A DNA stretch of 32,608 nucleotides from Bryobacterales bacterium. GTDB taxonomy: Bacteria > Acidobacteriota > Terriglobia > Bryobacterales > Bryobacteraceae. Location of the stretch: contig JADYZL010000400.1 of NCBI GenBank assembly GCA_020853155.1, positions 1 through 32,608 on the forward strand, given 5' to 3'. The notes under the pieces are model-generated. The model was not told the DNA's origin. It made no database searches and worked only from the letters and a program-made list of their open reading frames with translations. Both the position numbers and the translations under genes were made by a program. This document shows, one piece after another, positions 8,834-25,347 of the stretch. Position 1 is the first letter of the stretch. The number at the start of each line of letters is the position of its first letter.

Positions 8834-8877
8834 GAAACGAAAAGGGGAGGCGCTTCAGACCGTTCGTCCGCCTCCCC
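8834..8877 (-). terminator. rho-independent terminator ending the kinase-to-zinc-ribbon gene string
   Basis: Minus-strand RNA: GGGGAGGCG - 16-nt loop - CGCCUCCCC followed by UUUUCGUUU. Arms lie at 8844-8852 and 8869-8877, 54 nt past the stop of the 8931..9143 gene. Confidence 0.55.
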
Positions 8878-8930: not shown

Positions 8931-9143
8931 TCAACCGTTGCAGTGGTTGGGGCAGCGCCAATACCCCGCAGGGAGCGTGGCGTCGGCATTCAGCGTGGGC
9001 GTCCACACTTCGCCGCAATTCCGGCAGCGAAGCAACAGATTGTGGCGGTTCAGCCGGGTGACGCCGAGCCTTTCCAGATGATAGGCCGAAAGATAACGGG
9101 GATCTTCCGTCTGCGTTTGAGGGGCTTCAAGTACTTGTTCCAT
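8931..9143 (-). CDS. small zinc-ribbon-like protein (CxxC ... CxxxC), hypothetical
   Basis: 70 aa. RCRNCGEVW...WRCPNHCNG. Strong SD (AAAGGAGAG) 4 nt upstream of the ATG. 29-nt gap from the upstream gene. Confidence 0.6.
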   Translation of the reverse strand: MEQVLEAPQTQTEDPRYLSAYHLERLGVTRLNRHNLLLRCRNCGEVWTPTLNADATLPAGYWRCPNHCNG

Positions 9144-9172: not shown

Positions 9173-9622
9173 TTAGACGGCTTGCGAGGAACGGATCGTT
9201 CCGGCGGCTTCCGGCTCAAGATCCAGCCACCTCTCGATGGCCTGACGCAATACGGGCGGCTGTGAGGTATCGAGGATGGCGCGCGCTTCCGAAAACGCGA
9301 TCCGTTCGAGAATCTCGGACTCGCCGAGGTTTCTCATCCGGCGAAGCAGACATTCCACCGCGTCGCAAGCGAGCAAGCGGGTTCCGATCTCGCGGTGTTC
9401 GTCGGCGGCGATGTCGCAAATCGCCCGCAAAAGTTCTTCCGAAGGGCTTCGAAGCTCCACGACCGCTTCGAGCACCGCATGATGCAACTGCCAGTTCAAC
9501 CGGTATCGCAGGATGCGGACGAGACCCGATTGATGATCTTCCAGCCGCCCGGCGCGCTTCAGCTTATCAATCTGGCTGAGGATGGTTCCCCACTCTCGAA
9601 GGTCGGAAAAGAGATCGGGCAC
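9173..9622 (-). CDS. hypothetical all-helical protein (no family recognised)
   Basis: ORF 9173..9679 (the codon at 9679 is TTG). The GTG at 9622 is preceded by AGGAGG (9632-9637) with a 9-nt spacer, so I prefer 9622. An ATG at 9652 has no SD. Confidence 0.55.
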   Translation of the reverse strand: MPDLFSDLREWGTILSQIDKLKRAGRLEDHQSGLVRILRYRLNWQLHHAVLEAVVELRSPSEELLRAICDIAADEHREIGTRLLACDAVECLLRRMRNLGESEILERIAFSEARAILDTSQPPVLRQAIERWLDLEPEAAGTIRSSQAV

Positions 9623-9662: not shown

Positions 9663-9678
9663 TGCAATTGCGCTGCCA
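9663..9678 (-). promoter_or_regulatory. candidate sigma-54 (-24/-12) promoter for the 9622 and 9143 genes
   Basis: The minus strand reads TGGCAGCgcaaTTGCA, a 10/12 match to TGGCACG-N4-TTGCW with GG and GC correctly spaced. The predicted TSS near 9652 leaves a ~30-nt leader containing the AGGAGG SD. Confidence 0.45.
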
Positions 9679-9755: not shown

Positions 9756-10340
9756 CTAACTCGCGGGAACCGGTTCCGGCGCATCTGGAACCGCCCCGCT
9801 TCGGGACGCCTTTGCTGCCCGAAAACGGGCAGTGCTGGCAGTTTCCGTCCACTTGGCCGGGGACGAAACGGCCGCTGGAGCGCCCACCGCAACGCGAAAC
9901 CGTTCGAGGGTGGCGATCGGGTCCGGGTGCGCACCGTCGAGTTGCCGCACCGCCTGGTATTCCGCGTGCGCACGTTGAACCAGGGTGGTGAGTTCCGTGT
10001 CGTCGTATGGCTCCAACAGAGCAAAAACTCCCGCCTGGCTGGCCTCGTCCAGGTCGATCGTCAACGGCCGCGGGATAGTGACCACCACGCTGGGCGCGTT
10101 TCGAAGCGTCTCCGCGTGCTTCAGTACGTCCTGCCAGCGAATTTCCGGCAGCGGCTGATGGCAGACCACGACGGAGACAAGGTGCATCAGATCCGCGGCG
10201 TCGCGCAACTGCGCGCACACAAAGGTCCGGAATTTCGCGCCGCGCAGGACGCGATGGAATCGTGCCCTGGCGCTCGATTCCGTTCCAATGAGGAGAACAC
10301 TCGGGAGGGTCGCGAGAAGGGGATGCGTGAACGTTCTCAT
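9756..10340 (-). CDS. receiver (CheY-like) domain protein lacking the phosphoacceptor residues; low-complexity C-terminal tail
   Basis: 194 aa, ATG start. By-eye threading on the CheY fold: beta1 SVLLIGTESS, beta3 LVSVVVCHQPLP, beta4 SVVVTIP, beta5 GVFALLEPY. It lies directly downstream of the NtrC-family gene. Confidence 0.5.
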   Translation of the reverse strand: MRTFTHPLLATLPSVLLIGTESSARARFHRVLRGAKFRTFVCAQLRDAADLMHLVSVVVCHQPLPEIRWQDVLKHAETLRNAPSVVVTIPRPLTIDLDEASQAGVFALLEPYDDTELTTLVQRAHAEYQAVRQLDGAHPDPIATLERFRVAVGAPAAVSSPAKWTETASTARFRAAKASRSGAVPDAPEPVPAS

Positions 10341-10355
10341 TTCACCCGAACTTCG

Positions 10356-10371
10356 TGCACGTCACGGGCCA
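10356..10371 (-). promoter_or_regulatory. weak candidate sigma-54 promoter upstream of the receiver-like gene
   Basis: The minus strand reads TGGCCCGtgacGTGCA (10/12, GG/GC spacing correct). The predicted TSS would leave only ~5 nt before the ATG at 10340, which argues against it or implies a near-leaderless transcript. Confidence 0.25.
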
Positions 10372-10416: not shown

Positions 10417-11817
10417 TCAGGCGGAAGTGGAGAGATCTCCCTCGTCGTTACTTTTCTTACGAATCTTGTATTTTTCCATCCGGTAAATCAGGGCCTTCCG
10501 GCTGATGTCGAGGTATCGCGCCGCATGGGTCTGATTCCCGTCAAAGCGTTCGAGGGCTTTGACAAGCAGTTCTTTTTCAATCCCCTCCAGGCTTACGCCA
10601 CTCGGTGGCAGTTCCAGTTGCAGCGCGTCCACGGCGGGCCGATCGCGGCGCAGAAACTCGGGCAGATCGTTCAGCGTCACTTCGTCGCCACGAGCCAAGA
10701 CCACGATGCGTTCCACCACGTTCTCGAGCTCACGAACGTTGCCGGGCCAACGGTAATTCTGGAACCGGGGGAGCAGGGCGGGGGAGAGGCTCAACTCCGG
10801 GCGCCCCTGTCGTTCTTTCACTCTCAGGAAAAAATGCTGTACCAGCGCCGGAATGTCGTCGAGCCGGTCGCGCAGCGGAGGAATCTCGAGGGGGATCACG
10901 TTGAGGCGGTAGAAAAGATCTTCCCGGAACGTGCCGTCCTCGATCATCGCATGGAGATTCCGGTGCGTGGCGGCAACAAAGCGGACATCCACTTTTACGG
11001 GGCCGGTGGCGCCCACTTTCTCGAGTTCCCCTTCCTGCAGCAGCCGCAGCACCTTCACTTGCAACTCGCCCGGCATTTCGCCGATCTCGTCCAGGAAGAG
11101 TGTGCCTCCGTTGGCCATTTCCACCTTTCCGGTCTTGTTGGCGACCGCGCCGGTGAACGATCCCTTCACGTGTCCAAACAACTCCGATTCCAGCAGTTCT
11201 CTCGGGATGGCGCCGCAGTTGATCGTGACGAACGGACGCTCCCGCCTACGGCTGTTGAGATGGATTGCACGCGCAAGCAACTCCTTGCCCGTGCCGGTTT
11301 CGGCGTGGATCAGAATCGTCGAATTGCTTAGGGCCGCGCGGGACGCCGTATCAAGCAGGGCTAGCAGCGGTTCCGATTGCCCGATGATGCTCTCGAAACC
11401 GTACTTTCGATCGAGGCTGGCGCGCAGGTTGCGGACTTCTTCCACCAGGCGGAAGTGCTCGAGCACGCGCGTGACGACAATGCCCAGTTCTTCGTAATCG
11501 ATCGGCTTGGTAAGGTAGTCGTACGCTCCCAACCGCATCGCCTCCACAGCGCTTTGGATGGTTCCGTAGGCGGTCATTATCACGACGGGGATCTCGGCGT
11601 GCTCCCGCTGCATGCGCTTCAGCAGTTCCATGCCGGAGAGGTTGGGCATCTTCAAGTCGCTGAGGAGCAGCGCGGGAGCTTCCCGTTCGATTTCCGCGAG
11701 CGCTTCCGCCCCGTCCCGCGCGGCCGATACGGCATACCCCATCTCTTCCAACTGGGTTTGCAGCACCCAGCGAAGGCTATCGTCGTCGTCCGCGACCAGG
11801 ATTCGTTTCGGTGTCAT
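10417..11817 (-). CDS. sigma-54-dependent response regulator (NtrC family bacterial enhancer-binding protein)
   Basis: 466 aa. Receiver ILVADDDDSLRW...LLLSDLKMP. AAA+ domain with Walker A HAETGTGKE, ESELFGHVKGSFTGA (GAFTGA-type loop) and Walker B TLFLDEIGEM. C-terminal Fis-type HTH NQTHAARYLDISRKALIYRM. Confidence 0.92.
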   Translation of the reverse strand: MTPKRILVADDDDSLRWVLQTQLEEMGYAVSAARDGAEALAEIEREAPALLLSDLKMPNLSGMELLKRMQREHAEIPVVIMTAYGTIQSAVEAMRLGAYDYLTKPIDYEELGIVVTRVLEHFRLVEEVRNLRASLDRKYGFESIIGQSEPLLALLDTASRAALSNSTILIHAETGTGKELLARAIHLNSRRRERPFVTINCGAIPRELLESELFGHVKGSFTGAVANKTGKVEMANGGTLFLDEIGEMPGELQVKVLRLLQEGELEKVGATGPVKVDVRFVAATHRNLHAMIEDGTFREDLFYRLNVIPLEIPPLRDRLDDIPALVQHFFLRVKERQGRPELSLSPALLPRFQNYRWPGNVRELENVVERIVVLARGDEVTLNDLPEFLRRDRPAVDALQLELPPSGVSLEGIEKELLVKALERFDGNQTHAARYLDISRKALIYRMEKYKIRKKSNDEGDLSTSA

Positions 11818-12878
11818 GAGTCGGTATGTTTCGATGGAAGCACGACGCAGAAGGTCATCCCCGGTCCCGAATTCTTCCTTGCCAGAAGAGATCCTCCCAT
11901 CTGGCTCATGATCTGGTGGGCCACCGGGAGACCCAGGCCGGTACCGTGTTCCTTGGTCGTGAAAAACGGATCGAACAATCGGTCGACGTGCGCCGCGGCC
12001 ACCCCGTGCCCTCGATCGACGACTTCAATCGTGATCTTGTCGCCGCTGAATGCCGCGCCAAGCTCCACCATATCACCGTCCGGACTCGCCTCAATCGCGT
12101 TAATCATCAGATTCAAGAGCACTTGCTCCAATTGCTCCGGGTCGCACTCCACGGAGGGGAGGCCCACTCTCACGCGATTCGCCAGGCTCACCTGTTTGCC
12201 GCGAATGCCATGTCCGGCCAGCGTGAGTACATTCTCGAGAACCGGTAGCAAGTCCACTTTCTGAAACCGGGGCGCACGCGGCCGGGCGAAATTCAGAAAG
12301 TTCGTGAGCAGCCCATCCAGCCGGCTGCATTCATGGGTGATGATGTCGATGCATTTTTCCTGCTTCGGTTCGAGGCCCTGGCTGCGGCGTAGGATCCCGG
12401 CGGCGCCGCTGATGCTGGCCAGCGGGTTGCGAATCTCATGCGCAAGCCCGGCCGAGAGTTGCCCCAGTGCGGAGAGGCGCTCCGCCCGCTTCATGCCTTC
12501 GAAGTTCGCCTGGACCTTCTCGTACACATTCCCCAGCTTCTCCGCCAGGTTCTTGTAGTGGCGCTTCCGCCGCTGTTCCCGCGCCGTGAGCAACCCCACG
12601 CTTAACCCCACCGCAACCAGCGTCGCGGCATCCACCGCGGCTTCCATTGCCGGTGTCGCCTCGATCAACAGCAGCGCGCCGGAGCAAAGGGCGGAAAGCA
12701 GTCCACCAAGCCAACCGAATCGAATCGCCGCGAGGGTGACGATGAGCGCGTAGAGAGGTGCAAGCAGCCCGCCGCTGAGCCAGTTGAGCCACGCGATCAG
12801 CGCCAGAGCCAGAGCGATCGCCGCGTATCCGCCCCATTTCGGCCATTGGTTGTTTGGGATCCAATCTCGCGAGCTCAT
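11814..12878 (-). CDS. membrane sensor histidine kinase (about four TM helices, no obvious extracytoplasmic domain)
   Basis: 354 aa. H-box LAHEIRNPLASI, N-box LLNLMINAIEA and G-boxes DRGHGV / GTGLGL. ATGA overlap with the response-regulator gene. Confidence 0.9.
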   Translation of the reverse strand: MSSRDWIPNNQWPKWGGYAAIALALALIAWLNWLSGGLLAPLYALIVTLAAIRFGWLGGLLSALCSGALLLIEATPAMEAAVDAATLVAVGLSVGLLTAREQRRKRHYKNLAEKLGNVYEKVQANFEGMKRAERLSALGQLSAGLAHEIRNPLASISGAAGILRRSQGLEPKQEKCIDIITHECSRLDGLLTNFLNFARPRAPRFQKVDLLPVLENVLTLAGHGIRGKQVSLANRVRVGLPSVECDPEQLEQVLLNLMINAIEASPDGDMVELGAAFSGDKITIEVVDRGHGVAAAHVDRLFDPFFTTKEHGTGLGLPVAHQIMSQMGGSLLARKNSGPGMTFCVVLPSKHTDS

Positions 12879-13855: not shown

Positions 13856-13871
13856 TGCAATCCGTGGGCCA
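13856..13871 (-). promoter_or_regulatory. candidate sigma-54 promoter for the DUF302-like and small membrane protein genes
   Basis: The minus strand reads TGGCCCAcggaTTGCA (10/12, perfect -12 element, GG/GC spacing correct). The predicted TSS near 13845 gives a ~53-nt leader. Confidence 0.45.
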
Positions 13872-14045
13872 ATCGGGAGCGGGAAGGCCTCGGCAGGCCC
13901 GGTCCGGCGAAGCGCGCCGGGTGAACGTGACTGGGCATGGCGGGTTTGGCCTCTAATCGGGCACAACTGTGCGTTTACAGGCAGAACGCTCGAGAAAGTC
14001 GCCCACAAATCCGCCAAATCGAATATAGGAGAAGAATTCGGATTG

Positions 14046-14061
14046 TGGCACGCAAATTGCT
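14046..14061 (+). promoter_or_regulatory. sigma-54 (RpoN) -24/-12 promoter upstream of rnk
   Basis: TGGCACGcaaaTTGCT is a 12/12 match to TGGCACG-N4-TTGCW. It is intergenic and correctly oriented, ~98 nt upstream of the rnk start. Confidence 0.75.
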
Positions 14062-14158
14062 ACAGATATTCCGACAGTTCCCGAAACCGGCGGCACGGGT
14101 GTAGCTATGCAGCGGCATTCCGTTTGCCCAAGCTGTGTTTGCGGCCAGGAGGATTATT

Positions 14159-14581
14159 GTGAAAACGGTGCGAGACAACATTGTCATCACGAAAAGTGAC
14201 TATGAAAGACTACGGCCGCTCGTCGATGGCGGAAGAGCGTTCAGCGGGTCTGACGCGCAAAGTGTCGGCAGGCTGGCTCAGGAACTGGACCGGGCGGAGA
14301 TTGTGGAGCAGGATGCGCTTCCGGGCGACGTGATCACGATGAATTCTCGCGCCCGGCTGAAGGATCTGGATAGCGGCGAGATGAAAGAATACCGCCTCAT
14401 CTTTCCGACACAGGAGCGGAAAGGCAACGACGTCTCGATCCTGGCTCCCATTGGAACCGCCATATTGGGCTACCGGGTGGGCGACGTCATTGAGTGGCCG
14501 GTCCCCCGGGGAATCCGGCGCCTGGAGGTCGTGGAAGTGCTCTATCAGCCGGAATCGCAGGGAGTGCCGATTGAGGGGTGA
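14159..14581 (+). CDS. rnk: regulator of nucleoside diphosphate kinase (GreA/GreB C-terminal domain family, RNAP secondary-channel binder)
   Basis: ORF 14135..14581. The GTG at 14159 is preceded by AGGAGG (14148-14153). VITMNSRARLKDLDSGE...VSILAPIGTAILGYRVGDVIEWPVPRGIRRLEVVEVLYQPESQG closely parallels my recollection of E. coli Rnk (VVTMNSRVKFRNLSDGE...[22 protein letters not shown]...LEVLELEYQPEAAG). Confidence 0.85.
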   Translation: MKTVRDNIVITKSDYERLRPLVDGGRAFSGSDAQSVGRLAQELDRAEIVEQDALPGDVITMNSRARLKDLDSGEMKEYRLIFPTQERKGNDVSILAPIGTAILGYRVGDVIEWPVPRGIRRLEVVEVLYQPESQGVPIEG

Positions 14582-14654
14582 GCGCGTGCTTGACCCGCTT
14601 GCGGATGCAGGCGCGGTTCCGTGCTGCGAACCCGGCGCTACGGTACGGAGGGAT

Positions 14655-14670
14655 TGGCAATTCACTTGCT
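14655..14670 (+). promoter_or_regulatory. candidate sigma-54 promoter directly upstream of the dksA-like gene
   Basis: TGGCAATtcacTTGCT (10/12, perfect -12 element, GG/GC spacing correct) in the 110-bp rnk/dksA gap. The predicted TSS near 14681 sits just before GGAGG (14683-14687) and the ATG at 14692. Confidence 0.45.
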
Positions 14671-14691
14671 TATAAGCGAATTGGAGGCTGC

Positions 14692-15078
14692 ATGATGCCA
14701 AGAACAAAGGTACTTGACCCCATCGCCGAGTTTCGGCATGCGTTACTTGACGAAAAATCCCAGATGGAGTGGGAGCGCCGCCAGTCGGAACCGCCACCAA
14801 CCATCGGCACGGGCGATTCCGCGGATCAGGCGGCCGCGTTCCAGGAGCAGTTTGTCACGCTCCAGCGCAAAGACCAGCAGGCGATCAAGATCCGGCTCAT
14901 CGACGCAGCCCTATCGCGGATCGAAACGGGCGAGTTCGGCCTGTGCCTTGAGTGCGACGAACCGATTGCCCCCGCGCGCCTTCGCGCCGTGCCTTGGGCG
15001 TCCTATTGCGTCGCGTGCCAGGAGCGGCAGGATGCGGGGCAAGGCTCCGAAAAGGCGCGATTCGCGTTCTCGCCCTAG
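14692..15078 (+). CDS. DksA/TraR family C4-type zinc-finger protein
   Basis: ORF 14578..15078; the ATG at 14692 follows GGAGG. C4 finger CLECDEPIAPARLRAVPWASYCVACQ. Coiled-coil tip motif DSADQA (DxxDxA) at residues 42-47. Confidence 0.85.
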   Translation: MMPRTKVLDPIAEFRHALLDEKSQMEWERRQSEPPPTIGTGDSADQAAAFQEQFVTLQRKDQQAIKIRLIDAALSRIETGEFGLCLECDEPIAPARLRAVPWASYCVACQERQDAGQGSEKARFAFSP

Positions 15079-15183: not shown

Positions 15184-16086
15184 ATGTTTGCACTTGAGCG
15201 GGTGCTCGCACCCATCCAACTGCAAGGGGATTTCGAACAGCGGGCGCAATACGCCATCGATATCGCCGCGGCATTGGAGGCCGAACTCACCCTGCTGCAT
15301 GTCGTGAATTCCCGTCGGCTTGATAAACGCAATTCCGGGCTCAGTTGGCCGGAATGCGCGATGACCCGCACGAATCCTCCCTGCGTGGTCCATCGCGCCG
15401 TGGTCCATGGGGAAGTGCCCGAAGCGGTGGCGCGATATGCGGCGTTTGTCGATGCGAATCTGATTGTGTTGAGCGGCGGCGCGCGATCCTCTTGGCGGCG
15501 GCTTTGGCGCGCATCCATGGTGGAGAAGATCGTGGAAGCCACCGCGAAGCCGGTCCTCGCGGGCAACCTCGGGAGGGTGGAGCGATCCCGCTTCCATTCC
15601 CACCCCCGCATCCTCTGCATGCTCGGTCTTGGGGAAGAAGAAGACCGCCTTCTGGTGGAGTATGCCCAATCTTTGGCGGAACCGTCGGGCGGCGAACTGA
15701 TTCTATACGCTGCGGCGCCCAGGGCGAATGAAGGATTTCTGTTTGACCGGTCCGGGAGCCGTCACAGGCGCCAGCCGGTGGAAGCCTCGCTCGAACAACT
15801 GAACCGCCTGGGGGAATCCCTGCGAGTGCCCAACCAGTCGACGGTGAACACGAGACCCCCTTATCTGGGCCTCCGCCCCGCAATCCGGCAGCATCGGGTG
15901 AACCTCGTCGTGGCGCTTCGAAGGGAGCGTGGCGGCATCCCGGGGGCCGGCTTCGCGTTTGACGCCCTCCTGCGCCATGCTTCCTGTCCCGTGCTTTCGA
16001 TTACGCGAGAGAGTTTGCCAAGCCCTTCGGCGCATCTTGTGCAAGCTGCCTCGGAACCCTTAGAGTTGACTGCGCGGGGCACCTAG
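15184..16086 (+). CDS. tandem universal stress protein (UspA) domain protein
   Basis: 300 aa, SD GGGAGG before the ATG. Two Usp-like halves (LTLLHVVN...LIVLSGGARSSWRRLWRASMVEKIVEATAKPVL and ELILYAAA...LLRHASCPVLSI). The ATP-binding G-x2-G-x9-G(S/T) motif looks degenerate. Confidence 0.7.
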   Translation: MFALERVLAPIQLQGDFEQRAQYAIDIAAALEAELTLLHVVNSRRLDKRNSGLSWPECAMTRTNPPCVVHRAVVHGEVPEAVARYAAFVDANLIVLSGGARSSWRRLWRASMVEKIVEATAKPVLAGNLGRVERSRFHSHPRILCMLGLGEEEDRLLVEYAQSLAEPSGGELILYAAAPRANEGFLFDRSGSRHRRQPVEASLEQLNRLGESLRVPNQSTVNTRPPYLGLRPAIRQHRVNLVVALRRERGGIPGAGFAFDALLRHASCPVLSITRESLPSPSAHLVQAASEPLELTARGT

Positions 16087-16222
16087 CCCCCGCCGCGCGG
16101 CGCTCCTTTCGTGACATAAGCGTGTACAGGAATCCTCCCTTTCGCCTAGAATCGTCTCTGATGCGGCAGTGCCGGTTCCGCCTGGGTCTTCGGACCGCAA
16201 GCTCCATTGCCAAACCCGGAAG

Positions 16223-18100
16223 ATGGTCTACTTCATAGCAGTGGCGGGCGGCGTTCTGGTCGCATTGGCCCTCGATTTCGGGATTCTCGAACTTGCGTTC
16301 CTTGTTGCGCTCACTCTCTTCGCGCGCCGCGGCCTCGCGCGGGAGAGTCGCTTCCCCCTGGTCTGGTTGCGCCTGGTTCGCCGCATCGCGTGGCGGCCGG
16401 TCTGGGCCTATGGCTCGATCCTGCTGCTGGCCATCCTGCCGCGCGCCGTCTATCTCGCGGCTACCGGGCCTCCCGTGCCGTTCGTCACCGACGAGTTCAG
16501 CTACCGGCTCCTCGCGGACACCTTGGAATTAGGCCGCCTCACGAATCCCACGCATCCCCATTGGGAGTTCTTCGAAGCGATCCACGTGATTCCTAAGCCC
16601 ACCTACCAGTCTCAGTACTTGCCCGGTTCGGCGGTGTTCCTTTCCGTGGGGAAGATTCTGTTCGGCCATCATCACTTTGGGGTCTGGCTCTCGGCCGTGC
16701 TGCTCTTCGTCGCCCTGCTTTGGACGCTCCGCCAATGGATCTCTCCCGCCTGGGCGTGGTTAGCCACGGCGCTGGCCACCGTTCGTTTCGGGATTGGAAG
16801 CTACTGGGTGGATAGCTATTGGGGTGGCACGGTTCCGGCACTCGGGGGGACATTGCTGATCGGATCGGTCGCGGCTGCGCTCCTTGACCGTCGCGTTTCG
16901 CTCCGCGACGGCCTGCTGTTCGGGGCGGGCGCGGCGCTGCTGCTTGCGACAAGGCCATGGGAAGGCGTCGCCCTGGGTCTCGGGTGTTCCGGAGCGTTGC
17001 TCTGGGCGTTGTTCACGCAGAGACGGGAGTTGAGACGATTCTTTCTCGTATTCGCGGCGCCCGCAGCGGTGGTTCTGGCCTCCGCCGTCTTCCTGGTTCT
17101 CAGCTACACCACCGCCGTGACCGGAACCTTCGGCAAGATCCCCTATCAGGTGAATCGCGAAACCTACGGGTGGCCCATCACCCTCCCCTGGATGGCGCCT
17201 CGGGAAGTCGAGCTGCGGCAGCCGCAAATGCGGGCCTATCTCCGCTGGGAGGTGAGCGAGCACCAATCCGTCACTTCGCTGAAAGGGTTTCTGCTCGGAA
17301 CCCCTCACAAGCTCAGCATCATGTGGCGTTTCTTCCTTGGCCCCATGCTGATGGTCCTGCTCTGGGCCGCCGTTCGAGGCCGCAGTTCGCTGCGGCTCCG
17401 CAAGCTCTTTATCTGCGCGGCGCCCGCCTTCGTCGCGGTGGCGATAGAACAAACCTGGTATCCGCATTACGTGGCGCCCGCCTTCGCGGCGATCATCGCC
17501 GTCTGGGCGTTGGGCCTGCGCGAACTGGGCCGCCGCCGCTCTTCGAAAGACCGGAGCTTAACCGGCATGAGGCGCGCGGCATTTGCCGGCTGGTTCCTTG
17601 TGCTCGTGTTGCCTGCGCACCTGCTCTTGCTGAGCCTCAGCGGAGCAAGCCGTGCCGCGGAGTGGAGTTTCCAGCCAACGCTAAATGCGATCACCTGGTG
17701 CTGCAAGGTGGGTGGGAAACTGGACCGCTCGAAAGCTGAGCGGGAGATTCTTGACGCGGGGCGGCGCGAAGGTTTGCCCGGCGGAGGACGTCATCTCGTG
17801 TTCCTCAGTACTCCGGCGAGCCATCTCAATCCATCTCAATGGAACTACAACCAGGCCGCTATCGACGCTTCGCAAATCGTCTGGGCCGCCGACCTCGGGC
17901 CGCAAAAGAACGAGGAACTGCTCCACTACTACCCGGATCGAAAGCCGTGGCGCGTATACGGGGACATAAATGGCTATATCCTGCTGCCCTACGAGCAGCC
18001 GTTTCCCGATCTCCGGCCCCGCCTGGAACTGTTGGACGCCCAGTTCGGTAAGGCGGAGGGCGAGGAGGGGGAACGCGCCGGCCGCGCACCCGCTCCCTGA
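16223..18100 (+). CDS. polytopic membrane protein, probable GT-C fold (ArnT/PMT-like) glycosyltransferase
   Basis: ORF 16169..18100; the ATG at 16223 begins the first TM helix. More than 10 predicted TM segments and a DE motif in the first loop (PFVTDEFSYRLL), as in GT-C enzymes. Soluble C-terminal domain. The functional call is tentative. Confidence 0.55.
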   Translation: MVYFIAVAGGVLVALALDFGILELAFLVALTLFARRGLARESRFPLVWLRLVRRIAWRPVWAYGSILLLAILPRAVYLAATGPPVPFVTDEFSYRLLADTLELGRLTNPTHPHWEFFEAIHVIPKPTYQSQYLPGSAVFLSVGKILFGHHHFGVWLSAVLLFVALLWTLRQWISPAWAWLATALATVRFGIGSYWVDSYWGGTVPALGGTLLIGSVAAALLDRRVSLRDGLLFGAGAALLLATRPWEGVALGLGCSGALLWALFTQRRELRRFFLVFAAPAAVVLASAVFLVLSYTTAVTGTFGKIPYQVNRETYGWPITLPWMAPREVELRQPQMRAYLRWEVSEHQSVTSLKGFLLGTPHKLSIMWRFFLGPMLMVLLWAAVRGRSSLRLRKLFICAAPAFVAVAIEQTWYPHYVAPAFAAIIAVWALGLRELGRRRSSKDRSLTGMRRAAFAGWFLVLVLPAHLLLLSLSGASRAAEWSFQPTLNAITWCCKVGGKLDRSKAEREILDAGRREGLPGGGRHLVFLSTPASHLNPSQWNYNQAAIDASQIVWAADLGPQKNEELLHYYPDRKPWRVYGDINGYILLPYEQPFPDLRPRLELLDAQFGKAEGEEGERAGRAPAP

Positions 18101-18224: not shown

Positions 18225-18240
18225 TAGCACGCAAAATGCA
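18225..18240 (+). promoter_or_regulatory. weak sigma-54-like element upstream of the PFOR-like gene
   Basis: TAGCACGcaaaATGCA has correct spacing and shares GCACGCAAA with the perfect rnk promoter. However, the normally invariant -24 GG is AG. The predicted TSS near 18250 precedes the SD AAAGGAG and the ATG at 18267. Confidence 0.25.
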
Positions 18241-18266: not shown

Positions 18267-21200
18267 ATGATCCGAACCGCCCCCTCCGGACAAGAAGTCA
18301 AGAACACTCAGATTCCGTTCCGCCGGTTTCCGGGCATCGCCTCCGTGGCGGACGGAGCCGGAGCCGCCGTTTGGGTGGAAAGCCACATCGCGCAGGCGGC
18401 TTCGAGCTATCCCGTGCATCCCGCCCGCGCCATGGCGGAAGCGTTTGAAGACCTGGTGGGGCGGGGAGTCCGCAATCTTTGGCAGCAGCCTCTCGAGACG
18501 CTCCGCGCCGAGTCCCCACAGGATGCCGCTTCCATCTGCGAAGGGTATGCGCTCACCGGTGGCCGCGCCGTGAGTTTTGCATCCGGCCAGGCCTTGCCCG
18601 CGATGAACGAAGCGCTCCGCACCATTGCCGGGAAACGGCTGCCGATGGTTTTTCATGCGGGGGCGCGCGCGTTGCAATCCCAGGCCCTCGCCACGCGAAC
18701 CGGACATGACGATATCTTCTCCGTCGACGATTGTGGCTGGGGCATCGTGTTTGCCCGCGACGCGCAGGAAGTTGCGGATCTTGCACTGATCTGCCGCCGG
18801 GCCGCCGAGTACGCAGAAACCCCGTTCTTCGTCGTGCAGGATGCTTACGCCACTACCCACCAGATCCAGGACGTGCTGCTGCCGGAGCCGGATCTGATGC
18901 GCTTGTTCGTGGGGGAGGCTGAAGAGAAGCTCCGCAACTACTTCAACCCCCGTCGCCCGGCCATGCTCAGCCCCGTGCAGGAGGAGGCTGACTATGCCGA
19001 GGCGCGCCTCGCGCAGCGTGGATTCCTCGGCCGTGCCGCCGCCGCCCTCCAGGCGTCGATTGACGAATACGCGCGTCTCACCGGGCGTCTGGTGGCGGGT
19101 GTGGAAGGCTACCTGCTCGACGATGCGGAGCACGTGCTGCTTGGCTGTGGCTCCATGATGGAGGATGCCCGCCGCGCGGTGGATGGCCTGCGCGCGAGAG
19201 GCGTCCTGGCCGGAGCCGTGACGATCCGCGCATTCCGCCCCTTTCCCGCCGAGGCCCTTCGCGGGATGCTGGCGAACGCGCTTACCGTGAGCGTGCTGGA
19301 ACGTACGGACATACCACTATCTCCCGCGAATCCCCTGACTCTCGCGGTATCGGCCGCGCTCGGGGTAAGTCCACTGGTTCCGTCCGCTCGCGGCTCTGGC
19401 CTCCGGCTCTTCACGAGAGCCGTGGGCATCGGCGCCACCCGCGTGCCGGAACGGGAGTTCGTCGATGCCGTCGAACATGCGATCGCCGCCGTCTTCCTTC
19501 CCTCGTCCGTCGTCCGGCCGGATGGGCTACCGCCCGCCTTTGCCGCATCCCCCGGGCATTACGTTACCTCCAAGCCCGGTGCGGCAGCGCCTGCCACCGG
19601 ACTCGCCCTCGTTCGGGCGGGAGGCAGCGGCGCGGCCAACGCAAACCGGTTGATTGCCGCAGTCTCGCGTGCGCTCTTCGGTTTGCGGATCGATGCAGAG
19701 GGCGACGCCGGTACGGAGAAGGTTGGCAAGCCCATCACGCTCCGGCTGGCCGCCGCGTCGAGCGGCCCGCGGCCCAGCGCGCGCGAAACCAAAGCCAAGC
19801 TTGTCGTGGTGGAATCCGCAGGCCTGCTCCATGCGGGGAACCCGGTCTCGCTGGTGATGGATGGGGGCGTGCTCTTCTGCCCCTTCGCCCGTTCGATTGA
19901 GGAACTCTGGCGCATCCTGCCCGCGAGCGGGAAGCGGGAGATTCAGGAACGCGCTATCCGCGTTTCCGGACTAGACCTTGCGCGTGTCTCCAACCCCGCC
20001 GCAGCCACCGATGCCGTGGGGACATGGGGAGACCTGGTCGCACTCGGCGCCTGGCTCCGCATCAGTTCCTTTTTCAAGGAAAGCAAACTCGCCGAGCAGG
20101 AAGTCTATCATCGCATGCTCGAATGTCTCGGGCGCCTCTACCCCCAGGCGAGCGATGCCGCCATTGACGCAAGCTACGATGTCGTGAAGAAGGCATACCT
20201 CTCCATGCTCCGCTTCACGGTTCCGGCGGAGAAAGTGGCGATCCCGGCGAGTACCGGCCTGCCTGTGATCGGCGCGCCGATGGCCACGGGAGCGAATGGT
20301 GTCGTGGCGTCCGCGGGGGCGGTCATCGAACTCGACGCAAACTTCTGCGAGCAGATTATCGGCGCCGGCGCTTGCCCCAACCGGTCCAACGCGGAAACGG
20401 CCGATGCCGCGGCGCGGGCCAGTGCGCTGCCCGCGACGGATCTCATTCGAAGCCTGCGCCACGATGCTCCGGAAATTCCGTTGATCGATATGGAGCGTTG
20501 CGTCGGCTGCATGGAATGCGTCGTCGTGTGCCCGGATGTCGCCATCGTCGGGCGCGTGGTGGAGCCGGAGGAAGTCACGCGCGCTCTTGGCGCGATCGAA
20601 GATACCGAACTGCGCGGCCTCATGGCCGGATCCTTCGGAAAGACACGGCGCTACTGGGAAGCTTTTCTGGAGCGCAAAGAGCGGGGCGGCATGCTGGCGC
20701 TATTCGTCGATCCCGATCGCTGCAAGGGCTGCGCCGAGTGCGTGGACGCTTGCGGGATGCATGACGCGATCGCGATGAAACCGAAATCCAGCCTCGACCT
20801 TGAATTGATTGACCGTGGGATGGAGCTTTTCCGAAGCCTTCCCGACACGCCGGAGCGATTCCTTTCCGAGCGCTCTCTCGGCGATATCCTGCTGAGCGAC
20901 CGCGCGCAGCTTGCCGCCGGCGGCTCTTCCAGTTGCTCCGGCTGCGGACAATCCACCGCGGTTCGTCTGCTGCTTGCCTCCACGGGCTTCCAATACGGGG
21001 CGGATCGCGTCGGCGTGGTTGCGGCTTCCGGCTGCGACAGTGTCTATGGCGCCGTCTTCCCCTACAATCCTTACAAGGTGCCGTGGACCAACACCCTCTC
21101 AAGCAACGCGCCTGCGGATGCCCTGGGCGTCCGCCGGAGTTGGGATCGCGAAGGCAATCAGGGCCGCAAGCTTTGGGTGCTCGGCAGCATGGAGAACTTC

Positions 21201-21854
21201 GGCGGCGCCGGCCTTTCGGCACTCACCGCGCTGCTGAGTTCGGGCGAGGATATCAACGTGCTGGTGCTCGATTCGCAGGTCTTCGCTTGCGAGAGCCGCC
21301 GCATTCACGGCGCGGCTTTCCACTCACTAGGCAACGGCGGCGTGGGCGCGCGCGAGGAACTGAGCCTTCAACCCACCACGGACCTGGCGCAGATCGCGAT
21401 GGCCTTCCCGAATGTGATGGTGGCCCAAACCACCGCCTCTCACCTCAACCATTTCCATCGCGCCATCCGCGCGGCCAACGAGTTCTCCGGCCCGGCCGTA
21501 GTGATCTGCTATGCGACGTGCATGGCGGAGGATGGCGTCTCCGAAGAAAAGGCGATGGCCCAGGCGAAGTTGGCGGTCGAGAGCCGCACCTTCCCGCTCC
21601 TGATGCTCGATCCCAGGGAAGGGAGCTACCTGCGGGAGCAATTGAGTCTTTCCGGCAACCCTGCGCTCCGGCAGGATTGGTATGCGCCGGGGACGGATGC
21701 CACGCCCCTCGATTTTATCGCCTTCGCCAGAACCGAGGAACGCTTCGCTCCCTACTTCGGCACGGGCCGGAATGCAGGCGCGGCGCTCGCGGCGGCGAAC
21801 GAGAATCGCCTCCAGAACTGGCGGCGGTTGCAGGAACTCGCGGGGCTCCGCTAA
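18267..21854 (+). CDS. pyruvate:ferredoxin oxidoreductase-like (single-chain 2-oxoacid:acceptor oxidoreductase family) protein, divergent
   Basis: 1195 aa. Domain I-like N-terminus (SSYPVHPARAM...FASGQALPAM...LPMVFHAGARAL). Two ferredoxin motifs, CVGCMECVVVCPDVAI and CKGCAECVDACG. PP-domain motifs SCSGCGQS, ASGCDS and ICYATC. Confidence 0.88.
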   Translation: MIRTAPSGQEVKNTQIPFRRFPGIASVADGAGAAVWVESHIAQAASSYPVHPARAMAEAFEDLVGRGVRNLWQQPLETLRAESPQDAASICEGYALTGGRAVSFASGQALPAMNEALRTIAGKRLPMVFHAGARALQSQALATRTGHDDIFSVDDCGWGIVFARDAQEVADLALICRRAAEYAETPFFVVQDAYATTHQIQDVLLPEPDLMRLFVGEAEEKLRNYFNPRRPAMLSPVQEEADYAEARLAQRGFLGRAAAALQASIDEYARLTGRLVAGVEGYLLDDAEHVLLGCGSMMEDARRAVDGLRARGVLAGAVTIRAFRPFPAEALRGMLANALTVSVLERTDIPLSPANPLTLAVSAALGVSPLVPSARGSGLRLFTRAVGIGATRVPEREFVDAVEHAIAAVFLPSSVVRPDGLPPAFAASPGHYVTSKPGAAAPATGLALVRAGGSGAANANRLIAAVSRALFGLRIDAEGDAGTEKVGKPITLRLAAASSGPRPSARETKAKLVVVESAGLLHAGNPVSLVMDGGVLFCPFARSIEELWRILPASGKREIQERAIRVSGLDLARVSNPAAATDAVGTWGDLVALGAWLRISSFFKESKLAEQEVYHRMLECLGRLYPQASDAAIDASYDVVKKAYLSMLRFTVPAEKVAIPASTGLPVIGAPMATGANGVVASAGAVIELDANFCEQIIGAGACPNRSNAETADAAARASALPATDLIRSLRHDAPEIPLIDMERCVGCMECVVVCPDVAIVGRVVEPEEVTRALGAIEDTELRGLMAGSFGKTRRYWEAFLERKERGGMLALFVDPDRCKGCAECVDACGMHDAIAMKPKSSLDLELIDRGMELFRSLPDTPERFLSERSLGDILLSDRAQLAAGGSSSCSGCGQSTAVRLLLASTGFQYGADRVGVVAASGCDSVYGAVFPYNPYKVPWTNTLSSNAPADALGVRRSWDREGNQGRKLWVLGSMENFGGAGLSALTALLSSGEDINVLVLDSQVFACESRRIHGAAFHSLGNGGVGAREELSLQPTTDLAQIAMAFPNVMVAQTTASHLNHFHRAIRAANEFSGPAVVICYATCMAEDGVSEEKAMAQAKLAVESRTFPLLMLDPREGSYLREQLSLSGNPALRQDWYAPGTDATPLDFIAFARTEERFAPYFGTGRNAGAALAAANENRLQNWRRLQELAGLR

Positions 21855-21971: not shown

Positions 21972-22838
21972 TTAGACGCTCACCACCGGGCAGGGGCTTT
22001 CGCGGATGATCTCGTAGGCGTGCGCGCGCATCCGGCCAAAGATGCCGGAAGCGGTCCCACGCCCGATCACCAGCAGATCGGCCGCCTTGCTCCGCGCCAC
22101 CCCGCAGATCGCGTCCGCCGGGTCGCCGCCCTCTACCAGAACTTCCGGATTCCCCGGCTTCCCGGCGAGGAGCTTCTCGAGATCGGCGGTGACGAGTTGC
22201 TTCACTTCCACTTCCCAATCGCGCTCAAAATACTCGCCCGGGATCCGCTCCAGGTGCGGCACGACGTGAATCACCGTGAGGCGTGCGCCGATTTTCTGCG
22301 CCACATCCGTGGCCCAGACCGCTACCCGCTCGCTGGCGTCGCCAAGATCGATCGCGCAAAGAATGTGCCGGATCTCCCGCTGTTCGAGCGCTTGGGCCAT
22401 GTGCACGCCGGTCCAGACCGGTACGTCGGCGTCGTGCAGCACTTTCGCGGTGGTCGAGCCTAGAATGAATCGCCGGAAGCGCCCGTAGCCGTGCGTCGGC
22501 ATCAGGATGATGCTCGCGTTCATCTCGTGCGCCTTCTCGACGATGCGGGTGGCGGGATCTCCCTCGAGCAGCACGACCTCCAGATTCATGCCATTGAAGT
22601 ACTTGGCCGCGAAATCGCGTAGCTGATTCTCGGCCTGCTTCTTCCGTTCAACCACAAGATCGTGGAGCGCAACGCCGCTGAACTCCATGCTGGCGAATTC
22701 GTAGGGGACGTCTTCAAGCACATGCAGCAGGACGATGCGCGTCCTGGCCTTGTCGGCGAGATAGCGTGCATACTGCGCGCTCGCGCCGCATCGCTCCGAA
22801 AAGTTTACCGGCAAGAGAACCGATTCAAGGGAAAGCAT
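21972..22838 (-). CDS. tandem universal stress protein (UspA) domain protein
   Basis: ORF 21972..22859 (the codon at 22859 is TTG). The ATG at 22838 has GAAGGAGG 5 nt upstream. Usp motifs RIVLLHVLE...SIILMPTHGYGRFRRFILGSTTAKVLHDADVPVW and LTVIHVV...DLLVIGRG...ESPCPVVSV. Confidence 0.85.
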   Translation of the reverse strand: MLSLESVLLPVNFSERCGASAQYARYLADKARTRIVLLHVLEDVPYEFASMEFSGVALHDLVVERKKQAENQLRDFAAKYFNGMNLEVVLLEGDPATRIVEKAHEMNASIILMPTHGYGRFRRFILGSTTAKVLHDADVPVWTGVHMAQALEQREIRHILCAIDLGDASERVAVWATDVAQKIGARLTVIHVVPHLERIPGEYFERDWEVEVKQLVTADLEKLLAGKPGNPEVLVEGGDPADAICGVARSKAADLLVIGRGTASGIFGRMRAHAYEIIRESPCPVVSV

Positions 22839-22937
22839 GACGGCCTCCTTCGTCTGCAAGCTCTTTATATCTTTATCTTACGATAAAAAAAGCCTATGGA
22901 ACACATAAATAGGACTTAACGGCCCCGGATTCTCAAT

Positions 22938-22966
22938 AAAAAACCCGGCACGGCGAAGGGTGCCGG
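22938..22966 (-). terminator. rho-independent terminator after the EF-G paralog
   Basis: Minus-strand RNA: CCGGCAC-CCUUCGCC-GUGCCGG followed by G-UUUUUU-AUU. Arms lie at 22945-22951 and 22960-22966 and the A-run at 22938-22943 on the plus strand, ~35 nt past the stop at 23001. Confidence 0.7.
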
Positions 22967-23000
22967 CCGGGTTCTGAATTGCGCTCCGGGAGTCTTCCTG

Positions 23001-25097
23001 CTACTCCTCTTCCTCCTCCGCTCCTGTGCGGGCGGCCTTCGCCTTGGCGATGACCTTTTCGGCCTCGATTTGCGGCATGAAGTCGTAGTGGTCGAACTCC
23101 ATCGTGAAGGTCGCGCGGCCCTGCGTGATGGAGGTGAGCGCGTTCTGGTAGCTCAGCATCTCCGACATCGGCACGGACGCGTTGATCGTCTGCGTGTTGC
23201 CCTTGATGTCCATCCCCGCCACACGGCCCCGGCGGCTGTTCAGGTCGCCCATGATGTCGCCTGCGTACTCTTGCGGCGCATCGATCCGCACGGCCATGAT
23301 CGGTTCAAGGAGAGCCGGTTTCGCGGTGGCCATCGCCGCCTTGAACGCCTTCCTCCCCGCCAGCTTGAACGCCATTTCCGACGAATCGACGTCGTGGTAG
23401 CTGCCGTCGTAGAGGGTCACCTTGAAGTCCACCATCGGGAAGCCGGCCAGGTACCCCTGAGAAGCCGCTTCCAGCACGCCCTTTTCCACGGCCGGGATGT
23501 ACGTCTTGGGAATGGATCCGCCGAAAATCGCATTCACGAACTCGAATTCCTTGCCCCGTTCGAGCGGCTCCATCTTGATCTTGCAATCGCCGAACTGGCC
23601 GTGCCCACCGGTCTGCTTCTTGTGCCGCCCCTGTACGTCGGCGAAGCCTCGGATGGTTTCCCGGTACGGCACTTGCGGTTCCTTCAAGTTGAGGTTCACG
23701 CCGTAGCGGCGCGCGAGTTTGCTCACCACGATCTCCACGTGCTGCTGGCCGGAGCCCGCCAGCAGAAACTGCTGCGTGTGTGGATCGCGGTAAAAGCGCA
23801 GGCAGGGGTCTTCTTCGAGAATGCGCGCGATGGCGTTGCCCATCCGGTCTTCATCCTGCCGCGATACGGCTTCGATTGCGAAGGCGATCTGTGGCTCCGG
23901 CAGCTTCACCGCGGGATAAATCACCCCTGCGTTCTTTTCGCTCAACGTGTGGCCGGTAAGTGTATCTTTCAACTTCGAAACCGCGCCGATATCTCCGGCG
24001 TGCAACTCGGGCACTTCGCTGAGCGTCTTGCCGGTGAGCGAGCTCAAGTGGCTGAAGCGCTCGTCGGCGGAAGTTTCCTGGTTGAACAGATGTTGGTCGT
24101 TCTTGATGACCCCGCTCATCACCTTGAAGCAGGAAATACGCCCCGCGAACACGTCGGCCAGGGTCTTGAAGACAAACACAGCGGGCGGCTGCGCATCGCT
24201 CATGGCGCGCTCGCCCTCCACGCACTGAACGGTCATCTTGAGCGCCGGCCGCTGCGCCGGCGACGGCATGTATTCCCCCAGGATGCTCAAAACTTCGCTC
24301 GTGCCGATGTTCTGGTAGGCGGAGCCGCACAGCACGGGGAATAGCTTGCGCGCGTGGACTGCTTCCCGCAGCCCCGTCGTCAGGTTCTCCGCGCATACCG
24401 TGCCCGCCGCGAAGAACTCTTCCATCAGCTCTTCGTCGCCTTCGGCCACCATCTCTACGATGCCTTCGTGCAACTCCTCCGCGCGCGCCAGCAACTCCGC
24501 CGGAATCTCGCCCATCTTCCCGATGCCCTTGCCGTTGGGCTCGAAAAGATACGCTCTCATGCAGATGAGATCGATCACGCCGCGAAAATCCTTCTCGCTC
24601 CCGATCGGCATCTGCACCGCGACGGCTTCGCGTCCGAACACTTCGTGAAGCTGCTCCAGACGCTCGTCGAAGTTCGCGCGCTCCTTATCGAGCTTGTTCA
24701 CCAGGATGGCCGTGGGCAGGTCGAACTCCCCGGCGTATCCCATGAACTTCTCCGTCTGGGATTGCACCCCGTCCACGCCGTCCACAACCAGCAGAGCGCA
24801 ATCCGCCGCCGCCATCGCACTCTTGGCGTCGGCGTTGAACAGCGGAAAGCCCGGTGTATCGAGCAGATTGAACTTGTGGTTGTTGTACTCGACGGCGGCA
24901 AGGCCGGTTGAGATTGAGATCTTCCTCTGGATCTCCTCCTCATCGTAATCGGTGAGGGTGTTCCCTTCTTCTACCCGCGTGAGCCGGTTCGTGACGCCCG
25001 TCCCATAGAGAATTCCCGCCGTGAGGGTCGTCTTTCCACTGTTCGAGTGGCCGAGTAAGGCTACATTGCGGATGTGCTGGCTGTCGTAGACTTTCAC
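23001..25097 (-). CDS. elongation factor G paralog (EF-G-2 type)
   Basis: ORF 23001..25106 (the codon at 25106 is TTG, 1 nt from the SD). The GTG at 25097 lies 10 nt after AAGGGAG. G1 GHSNSGKT, G3 DTPG, G4 NKLD, plus domains II-V (KKQTGGHGQFGD, SYHDVDSSEMAF). The N-terminus resembles my recollection of Thermus EF-G-2 (VALVGHAGSGKTTLTEALLY...RVEEGTTTTDY) rather than canonical AHIDAGKT. It is not in an rpsL-rpsG-fusA-tuf context. Confidence 0.88.
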   Translation of the reverse strand: MKVYDSQHIRNVALLGHSNSGKTTLTAGILYGTGVTNRLTRVEEGNTLTDYDEEEIQRKISISTGLAAVEYNNHKFNLLDTPGFPLFNADAKSAMAAADCALLVVDGVDGVQSQTEKFMGYAGEFDLPTAILVNKLDKERANFDERLEQLHEVFGREAVAVQMPIGSEKDFRGVIDLICMRAYLFEPNGKGIGKMGEIPAELLARAEELHEGIVEMVAEGDEELMEEFFAAGTVCAENLTTGLREAVHARKLFPVLCGSAYQNIGTSEVLSILGEYMPSPAQRPALKMTVQCVEGERAMSDAQPPAVFVFKTLADVFAGRISCFKVMSGVIKNDQHLFNQETSADERFSHLSSLTGKTLSEVPELHAGDIGAVSKLKDTLTGHTLSEKNAGVIYPAVKLPEPQIAFAIEAVSRQDEDRMGNAIARILEEDPCLRFYRDPHTQQFLLAGSGQQHVEIVVSKLARRYGVNLNLKEPQVPYRETIRGFADVQGRHKKQTGGHGQFGDCKIKMEPLERGKEFEFVNAIFGGSIPKTYIPAVEKGVLEAASQGYLAGFPMVDFKVTLYDGSYHDVDSSEMAFKLAGRKAFKAAMATAKPALLEPIMAVRIDAPQEYAGDIMGDLNSRRGRVAGMDIKGNTQTINASVPMSEMLSYQNALTSITQGRATFTMEFDHYDFMPQIEAEKVIAKAKAARTGAEEEEE

Positions 25098-25347
25098 AGA
25101 TTGCAAACTCCCTTATGCGTATTCGGATGATTGTGTCAGATTTCCAAGTTGCGATCCTAACATAGTCGTAACGCACTTGCGGCTCAGGGCACAAGTGTGT
25201 TCCACTTCCTTCGCGCAGCACGCTTCCGGCATACCTTTCCGCCGCTTTCGACCGCGGTCTTGCGAGGACGTAGCGGCGGCGGGAACTTCCATTCCCAGTC
25301 ACGGATGGCCACTCTCCGGCCATAGTATCCTAAGGTAGTTCGAGCTT

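Follow-up and report, generated by a model that had tools for sequence, protein, structure and literature searches.

A 32,608-nt stretch of DNA from a soil acidobacterium (a Bryobacterales bacterium, Acidobacteriota), called the window here and the source of all coordinates given without a locus name, carries rnk, a dksA-like gene and a gene for a tandem universal stress protein (usp) and, divergent to these, genes for a histidine kinase and an NtrC-type bacterial enhancer-binding protein (bEBP). The features described below make it likely that the locus is a self-contained sigma-54 regulon island, in which the kinase and the bEBP switch on rnk, the dksA-like gene and probably usp. The original prediction was of two sigma-54 promoters, one in front of rnk and one in front of the dksA-like gene. 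Read from the sequence, the unit is larger than that, comprising five predicted sigma-54 promoters, two copies of a 16-bp element that are candidate activator sites, and a putatively autoregulated kinase/bEBP operon (Table 1). Relatives of the locus carry L numbers. All of the comparative support comes from metagenome-assembled genomes (MAGs) of one order, the Bryobacterales, and the rnk comparison set consisted of the 80 loci returned by a genome scan with an Rnk alignment.

Sigma-54 promoters were sought with the consensus TGGCACG-N4-TTGCW, with GG and GC exactly 10 nt apart, against a background of 100 dinucleotide-preserving shuffles, and with a weight matrix trained on relatives' promoters only, against 200 random sequences. 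The exact consensus occurs once in the window versus 0.01 times expected from the shuffles, in agreement with an earlier hand estimate of about 0.01 perfect matches per window. When up to two mismatches are allowed there are 12 matches, versus 5.4 ± 2.3 expected, and none of the 100 shuffles reached 12. The original prediction had proposed that intergenic and intragenic matches be compared with such a matrix. The five best matches in the window are all intergenic, each facing a start codon; the lower matches are within random expectation. The fourth- and fifth-ranking scores, 17.3 and 14.8 bits, still exceed the maxima reached at those ranks in the random sequences, 14.5 and 14.0 bits (n = 200). 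All five motifs have GG and GC intact, with 12/12 consensus positions at 14046 and 10/12 at the other four, and the entire five-promoter layout is seen again in L162.

The 12/12 motif is intergenic and lies where the original prediction had placed it, ahead of the rnk start codon (GTG 14159) and its AGGAGG (14147-14152). The predicted transcription start, at about 14072, gives an 87-nt leader. The earlier identification of rnk is borne out by the Pfam domains of the product, by a score above the NCBIfam NF004396 cut-off (118.5 bits; cut-off 109) and by a full-length match to E. coli Rnk (PDB 3bmb; E = 1.4e-24); the nearest Rnk homologues in the databases are from Bryobacterales, phylum Acidobacteriota. 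By family membership, the protein would bind RNA polymerase's secondary channel. A -24/-12 element (at least 9/12, GG and GC intact, no more than 200 nt upstream of rnk) was found in 18 of 19 loci with a linked bEBP gene, versus 5 among the remaining 61 (Fisher p = 1.7e-12); such an element has a background frequency of 0.05 per 185 nt. Three of the five unlinked loci with the element, L003, L009 and L011, belong to the same clade and keep the exact 16-bp element upstream of rnk. The bEBP gene was not seen in the available sequence of these three, of which L003 and L011 are cut by the contig end; L009 retains the promoter, the 16-bp element and orf142, with the kinase and bEBP genes absent within 6 kb. 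Past the closest relatives the rnk spacer is mostly unalignable, yet the -24/-12 motif persists. Loci for rnk in Pyrinomonadaceae, Nitrospira, Chloroflexota and other groups lack the kinase/bEBP pair, and those in Pyrinomonadaceae, Nitrospira and others also lack the motif. The rnk leader (14072-14158) has no Rfam match and folds no better than shuffles (z = +0.83). It is about 45 nt longer in the window's clade than in other Bryobacterales and is better conserved than the promoter-distal spacer. A second -24/-12-like string in the leader (14091-14106) was rejected as degenerate and not conserved as such.

The divergent genes orf142, tm81, kinase and bEBP form one minus-strand array. The AAA+ enhancer-binding protein that had been noted 2.2 kb from the rnk motif is well supported by its Pfam domains (receiver, E = 4.5e-30; Sigma54_activat, 3.8e-69; HTH_8, 2.4e-15) and by the conservation of its divergent synteny with rnk. 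About 20 Bryobacterales loci have the same kinase and bEBP divergent to rnk, in most cases with orf142 between, and across Bryobacterales MAGs the gene order is conserved as bEBP, kinase, orf142 and, on the opposite strand, rnk. Identity of the bEBP is 71-93% wherever it is divergent to rnk, and 64% in L040, in which the kinase/bEBP pair is found upstream, on the same strand. Synteny of orf142 was seen in 18 of the 80 loci, 16 of them with the gene divergent to rnk, and the divergent promoter upstream of orf142 (ATG 13792) is present in 14 of 16 divergent loci, the window included. In the kinase, the HisKA and HATPase domains come straight after a hydrophobic N-terminus (residues 16-99, about 85). 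There is no large external domain, so sensing probably occurs within the membrane or through partner proteins. The kinase has a weak DUF4118-like match, and its best NCBIfam matches, AtoS and ZraS, are both below cut-off. The DUF302 label for orf142 is second-hand: it stems from precomputed PF03625 matches and NCBI names on homologues, and our own hmmscan was blank even at E ≤ 1.

The spacer between rnk and orf142 has diverged except for one invariant block, UAS1, which is one of two window copies of a 16-bp near-palindrome with the consensus TGTGCGTTTWCRGGCA. The centre of UAS1 lies 72 bp from the GG of the rnk -24 element and 106 bp from that of orf142. The exact pattern was found in 12 of the first 80 loci, with 13 matches, 12 of which are in the spacer just upstream of rnk; the thirteenth, in L009, is ahead of another -24/-12 motif. 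Across loci the distance from the centre of the element to the rnk GG is 50, 60-63 or 72-73 bp, i.e., it changes in steps of about 10 bp. Given this helical-turn spacing from the rnk -24 element, we read the 16-bp element as the binding site of the activator, and that activator is likely the neighbouring bEBP. After the two copies in Table 1, the next unrelated match to the 16-bp weight matrix in the window scored 7.6 bits. UAS2 ends 137 nt upstream of the promoter motif at 9678, and its equivalent is found upstream of the same gene in L001, L017, L018 and L014. No copy was found near the rec194 promoter in the weight-matrix scan of the window.

The dksA-like gene starts 110 nt after the rnk stop codon (ATG 14692/14695), and this gap does contain the second motif of the original prediction, a 10/12 match with GG and GC correctly placed. 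The predicted start, at about 14681, falls 2 nt 5' of a GGAGG (14683-14687), again as had been proposed. For a match this good or better (10/12 or more, GG and GC intact), the chance expectation is 0.006 per 110-nt gap on one strand. The spacer between the two genes varies from 41 to 110 nt among loci and its flanks are unalignable, while TGGCAnTnCAATTGCT keeps GG and GC; this motif is present in nine of the 13 rnk/dksA-like loci, 28-53 nt before the start codon. In L003 the motif is only about 15 nt from the ATG. The motif is missing in the remaining four (L002, L081/L166 and L167), in which the dksA-like gene would therefore be read through from the rnk promoter. Because no terminator-like sites were found between rnk, the dksA-like gene and usp, the dksA-like gene is placed downstream of the rnk promoter in any case; most members of the clade have probably acquired a separate sigma-54 promoter for it. 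The synteny of rnk, dksA and this promoter, put up as a check in the original prediction, holds for gene order, kept in 13 loci, and only in part for the internal motif.

The dksA-like product has a C4 zinc finger (CxxC-N17-CxxC), with C85, C88, C106 and C109 invariant in the alignment, and a tip, D42-S-A-D45-Q-A47 (DSADQA), that aligns with D71, D74 and A76 of E. coli DksA. An AlphaFold2 model (pLDDT 82.6) has helices at 10-31 and 43-79, and the best Foldseek matches were DksA2 (4ijj) and RNA polymerase-bound DksA (7khi_M; TMq 0.71). Pfam, tip alignment and fold matches agree with the earlier recognition of the finger and tip. Scores are under the NCBIfam DksA cut-offs (TIGR02420, 63 vs 115.5; NF033459, 62 vs 105), so the protein was filed as a DksA/TraR-family protein and not as DksA. 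Orthologues occur in the closest clade only, always directly 3' of rnk. A metagenome scan with the protein returned one true orthologue and 79 distant paralogues, the latter contributing little to the question of the promoter. The gene is, by its distribution, an apparent add-on in one narrow clade and not a conserved target. The idea that rnk and dksA are jointly under sigma-54 stands insofar as both motifs are conserved; only rnk, however, is a conserved target. In soil and groundwater metagenomes, -24/-12-like elements were seen 30-70 nt before the ATG of three unrelated DksA/TraR-family genes, those in L116 and L117 being homologues with a common motif, and sigma-54 control of such genes may extend beyond the window's clade.

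The rest of the rightward cargo is variable. No promoter-like or terminator-like site was found in the 105-nt gap before usp, and the order rnk, dksA-like gene, usp recurs with gaps of 56-61 nt in L161-L163; usp is probably co-transcribed with the other two genes. A gene for an MreB paralogue lies about 20-50 nt after rnk in L005, L017, L018, L020 and L024 (Pfam-checked except in L017), holding the position taken by the dksA-like gene in the window, which suggests a link of the circuit to cell shape. In L007 and L016 a tandem Usp gene is found 0.3-0.7 kb downstream of rnk. Across these loci rnk is the apparent conserved target, and the accompanying cargo differs by lineage.

Table 1. Features of the predicted sigma-54 island and of related loci (positions in the window unless a locus is named; aa, amino acids; bits, weight-matrix score)
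Feature	Position	Strand	Sequence or remarks
rnk promoter, sigma-54 (-24/-12)	14046-14061	+	TGGCACGcaaaTTGCT; 12/12; 19.5 bits, top score
rnk, 140 aa, Rnk family	14159-14581	+	Pfam Rnk_N and GreA_GreB
Internal promoter of dksA-like gene, sigma-54	14655-14670	+	TGGCAATtcacTTGCT; 10/12; 17.3 bits, rank 4
DksA/TraR-family gene, 128 aa	14692-15078	+	Pfam zf-dskA_traR, E = 1.1e-13
usp, tandem universal stress protein	15184-16086	+	Pfam Usp, two copies
643-aa membrane protein	16169-18100	+	about 9-10 hydrophobic segments; no Pfam or NCBIfam match
UAS1, candidate activator site	13968-13983		TGTGCGTTTACAGGCA; between the divergent promoters; 26.9 bits
Promoter of orf142-tm81-kinase-bEBP operon, sigma-54	13856-13871	-	TGGCCCACGGATTGCA; 10/12; 19.3 bits
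orf142, first gene of sensor operon, 142 aa	13364-13792	-	DUF302 label from databases only
tm81, 81 aa	13082-13327	-	one C-terminal membrane helix (hydrophobic segment 55-81); conserved in L001-L003 and L008
Histidine kinase	11814-12878	-	Pfam HisKA and HATPase_c
NtrC-type bEBP	10417-11817	-	receiver, AAA+ Sigma54_activat, HTH_8 (Fis-type helix-turn-helix)
rec194 promoter, sigma-54 type	10356-10371	-	TGGCCCGTGACGTGCA; 10/12; 14.8 bits, rank 5
rec194, 194 aa	9756-10340	-	receiver-like by eye; no Pfam match
UAS2, candidate activator site	9816-9831		TGCCCGTTTTCGGGCA, perfect palindrome; 21.6 bits
Promoter of 149-aa/zinc-ribbon pair, sigma-54	9663-9678	-	TGGCAGCGCAATTGCA; 10/12; 17.7 bits
149-aa protein	9173-9622	-	GTG 9622, AGGAGG 9637-9632; no Pfam match
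70-aa protein	8931-9143	-	CxxC...CxxxC zinc-ribbon-like motif; weak zinc-ribbon matches only
Terminator-like hairpin, end of 149-aa/zinc-ribbon unit	8835-8877	-	GGGGAGGCG...CGCCTCCCC then TTTTCGTTT; read by eye
MreB/Mbl paralogues	L005:6455-7471, L018:6457-7476, L020:6448-7470, L024:4990-6066		Pfam E about 1e-107 to 1e-115
DksA/TraR gene of L116	L116:150-640		TGGCACCTGGCGTGCA
DksA/TraR gene of L117	L117:3700-4170		TGGCATGGCGCGTGCT
DksA/TraR gene of L118	L118:3560-3940		CGGCATGGCCGTTGCA

Two of the predicted promoters face small genes downstream of the bEBP gene. The rec194 promoter is conserved in L001, and L017 carries TGGCACGCAAATTGCA at the same place (three loci counted). Identity of the rec194 product is 66% in L001 and 33% in L017 and L009, the L009 relative having a weak Response_reg match (E = 1.3e-4). 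In L017 the rec194 leader is about 12 nt and includes AGGAAG. The promoter of the 149-aa/zinc-ribbon pair is conserved in L001, L017, L018, L014 and L162, and site and promoter were counted as a pair in five loci; the 149-aa protein shares 72% identity with its L001 counterpart and 39-47% with those of L017 and L018. Further promoters near rnk are found in relatives (L009:7711-7854, L017:7649-8228 and L018:7623-8246, all on the minus strand), with a 16-bp site upstream in L009 and L018. The genes behind them encode a 118-aa protein in L009 and receiver-like rec194 relatives of 168-184 aa. A guess that the 118-aa protein is a ribosome-hibernation factor was dropped, there being no Pfam match. 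Judging from these genes, several orphan receiver-like proteins seem to belong to the regulon. In L161, a close relative, a Gp49-like (PF05973) gene pair, probably a toxin-antitoxin pair, is inserted just downstream of the bEBP gene, ahead of the small genes that follow it (L161:1070-1701). No rec194 homologue was called in that locus, and extra -24/-12-like matches nearby indicate that the island has been rearranged locally.

No sigma-54 motif was found ahead of usp or the gene for the 643-aa membrane protein, nor ahead of the second usp and the gene for the EF-G paralogue. The 643-aa protein is 60-72% identical in L001 and L002, and its gene is preceded by a sigma-70-like TGTACA-N18-TAGAAT (16123-16152) of which TAGAAT is kept in L001. 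A string before the gene for pyruvate:ferredoxin oxidoreductase (PFOR), TAGCACGcaaaATGCA at 18225-18240, was considered as a sixth promoter and rejected, as it has no GG and neither L001 nor L002 conserves it as a -24/-12 element. Because the 643-aa gene has an apparent sigma-70-type signal and the PFOR gene a conserved upstream region of its own, both are placed outside the sigma-54 unit. The segments downstream of the island, 21972-25106 (minus strand) and 18267-21854 (plus strand), hold a fused PFOR and another tandem Usp gene, together with a paralogue of EF-G that scores 899 bits against an NCBIfam EF-G subfamily. With its Usp, EF-G and PFOR genes, the region looks like a stress or low-oxygen neighbourhood.

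In the circuit we propose, the membrane-embedded kinase, with tm81 and the DUF302-like orf142 as possible accessories, would phosphorylate the bEBP, which would bind both copies of the 16-bp element and remodel sigma-54 holoenzyme at the -24/-12 promoters. Leftward, the bEBP would activate its own operon, giving positive autoregulation. Rightward, it would activate rnk, then the dksA-like gene and probably usp, with the extra internal promoter boosting the dksA-like gene in the window's clade. Two more promoters would drive the small conserved proteins downstream of the bEBP. The net output would be the signal-dependent production of secondary-channel proteins that displace or compete with housekeeping Gre factors and DksA. 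We infer the choice of activator, the dependence on sigma-54 in vivo, the extent of the operon and the effect on RNA polymerase; the 'competing factors' and the 'reprogramming' of polymerase in the original prediction would likewise follow from family membership.

Several observations weigh against this circuit. A search of the open reading frames of the window and 168 loci for an RpoN box found none, the genome beyond these stretches not being searched, and the bEBP gene implies sigma-54 in the host only indirectly. The conserved loci are confined to one order and, since linked loci share ancestry, the conservation counts are non-independent events. The sigma-54 contact loop of the bEBP, GSFTGA (residues 219-224), is a one-residue variant of the canonical GAFTGA. 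With a start at about 10345, the rec194 promoter leaves a leader of some 5 nt, and neither the window nor L001 shows a clear ribosome-binding site there, so that the mRNA would be nearly leaderless or the start codon is misplaced. At rnk the 16-bp element is a weak palindrome, with half-sites TGTGCG and TGCCTG, and each promoter region holds a single copy, unlike those of many bEBPs, which have two or more sites. These last two features would suit an explanation in which the -24/-12 elements are genuine sigma-54 promoters activated by something other than the neighbouring bEBP, and the 16-bp element binds a repressor, an IHF-like bender or another bEBP; synteny would then reflect shared function and not direct control. 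Acidobacterial genomes encode many bEBPs, and the arrangement in L009, described above, also speaks for such an explanation. We nevertheless regard it as quite improbable, as the bEBP and the 16-bp element co-occur in nearly all loci, the element stands ahead of two further promoters in the same island, and the bEBP operon has a promoter served by the element, the usual mark of autoregulation. Further, a spacing of 50-73 bp in helical turns suits an activator that contacts the holoenzyme.

The internal promoter is the weakest link in the proposed circuit. With up to three mismatches and by weight matrix, no 16-bp element was found within 0.6 kb of it, the nearest copy being 0.7 kb upstream. 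The internal motif might thus be a relic or serve another purpose, with the dksA-like gene transcribed by read-through from rnk or from an unrecognised promoter. This is unlikely, although the lack of a terminator after rnk, the four loci with the same gene order and no motif, and the close approach of the motif to the ATG in L003 are all in its favour. The retention of GG and GC in nine loci despite an unalignable spacer, and the chance of 0.006 per gap, argue for a promoter. In addition, bEBPs can act from sites about 1 kb away, as at the NtrC enhancer, and activation of the internal promoter may come from the site 0.7 kb upstream or through a different activator. It is extremely improbable that the motifs as a whole are chance matches in GC-rich intergenic DNA, with sigma-70 or extracytoplasmic function (ECF) sigma factors driving transcription. 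One weak sigma-70-like match overlaps the rnk promoter region on the opposite strand (14051-14022, 9/12) and is itself within chance expectation; against chance stand the exact match, with 0.01 expected, the intergenic position and orientation toward genes of the five best matrix matches, the conservation of the motifs amid diverged spacers and their tight association with the bEBP gene.

A dedicated conserved circuit before rnk would mean that, in at least one bacterial order, Rnk is made in response to a specific signal. The locus is in this respect a rare clue to when Rnk is used, and it names a regulator that can be manipulated: a constitutive bEBP should switch rnk on, which would make the question of Rnk experimentally approachable. 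More tentatively, it is possible, if somewhat doubtful, that a membrane-sensing two-component/sigma-54 pathway conserved across Bryobacterales has Rnk as its main, dedicated output and is a stress or resting-state programme that occupies the secondary channel. If so, Rnk would have a first physiological role and a defined inducing pathway, the companions of which differ by lineage: a DksA-like factor in one, universal stress proteins or the MreB paralogue in others. The value of the locus lies in the cargo and in the lead it offers, and no new regulatory principle is involved.

The layout resembles that of zraP/zraSR (hydHG) of E. coli, which are reportedly arranged divergently with sigma-54 promoters, the regulator being positively autoregulated. 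At the sequence level both systems have an operon for a kinase and an NtrC-type bEBP, a divergent target and sigma-54 promoters, predicted ones in the window; the activator site in the zraP/zraSR spacer has a counterpart in the candidate site UAS1. The kinase and the bEBP have ZraS and ZraR among their best NCBIfam matches, yet the scores are far below the cut-offs (193 vs 479 and 395 vs 760, respectively). Further, unlike ZraS, the window kinase has no periplasmic sensor domain, its N-terminus consisting of hydrophobic helices only. The cargo also differs, being a factor of an RNA polymerase-binding family where zraP encodes a periplasmic chaperone, and the island adds promoters and genes. 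From these comparisons, the window system is ZraSR-like in layout and not a member of the ZraSR family.

Rnk of E. coli binds in RNA polymerase's secondary channel, but it has no known function and its deletion gives no phenotype (2015 review, PMC4598747). It has been considered a possible anti-Gre or anti-DksA factor under conditions yet to be found, and Gfh1 and Rv3788 inhibit catalysis (PMC4598747). Signal-specific regulation of E. coli Rnk is not mentioned in that review, whereas rnk of the window appears to be under a dedicated sensory circuit. The dksA-like protein shares with DksA, DksA2 and TraR a C4 zinc finger, the DxxDxA tip and a predicted coiled-coil fold; it differs in its short first helix (10-31), in a proline-rich loop before the tip, in scores below the DksA and DksA_like cut-offs and in its narrow clade. 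In a paper on the Geobacter RpoN regulon, dksA was mapped to an RpoD-type promoter (PMC2725144). By term search, rnk, dksA and GreA are not mentioned in a Desulfovibrio regulome paper, a 2011 comparative analysis or a 2025 cross-phylum matrix survey. Full-text literature searches, which did not cover subscription journals, gave no report of a sigma-54-driven rnk or dksA, in line with the original suspicion that the arrangement had not been described.

The closest parallel in purpose is relA of E. coli, which has an NtrC-dependent sigma-54 promoter (PMC4066584). As there, a bEBP acting at a sigma-54 promoter would here increase the amount of a factor that modulates RNA polymerase globally, so that a specific signal is passed on to transcription genome-wide. 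The relA product is a ppGpp synthetase within the nitrogen regulon, whereas the products here are putative secondary-channel binders in a dedicated circuit. If the proposed circuit is correct, secondary-channel factors join, beside NtrC-relA, a short list of global polymerase modulators under enhancer-dependent control. In sum, the architecture is a classical, textbook one and the cargo is new as far as full-text searches showed; the locus is an uncharacterised NtrC-family circuit with unusual cargo, and NtrC-relA is its nearest conceptual precedent.

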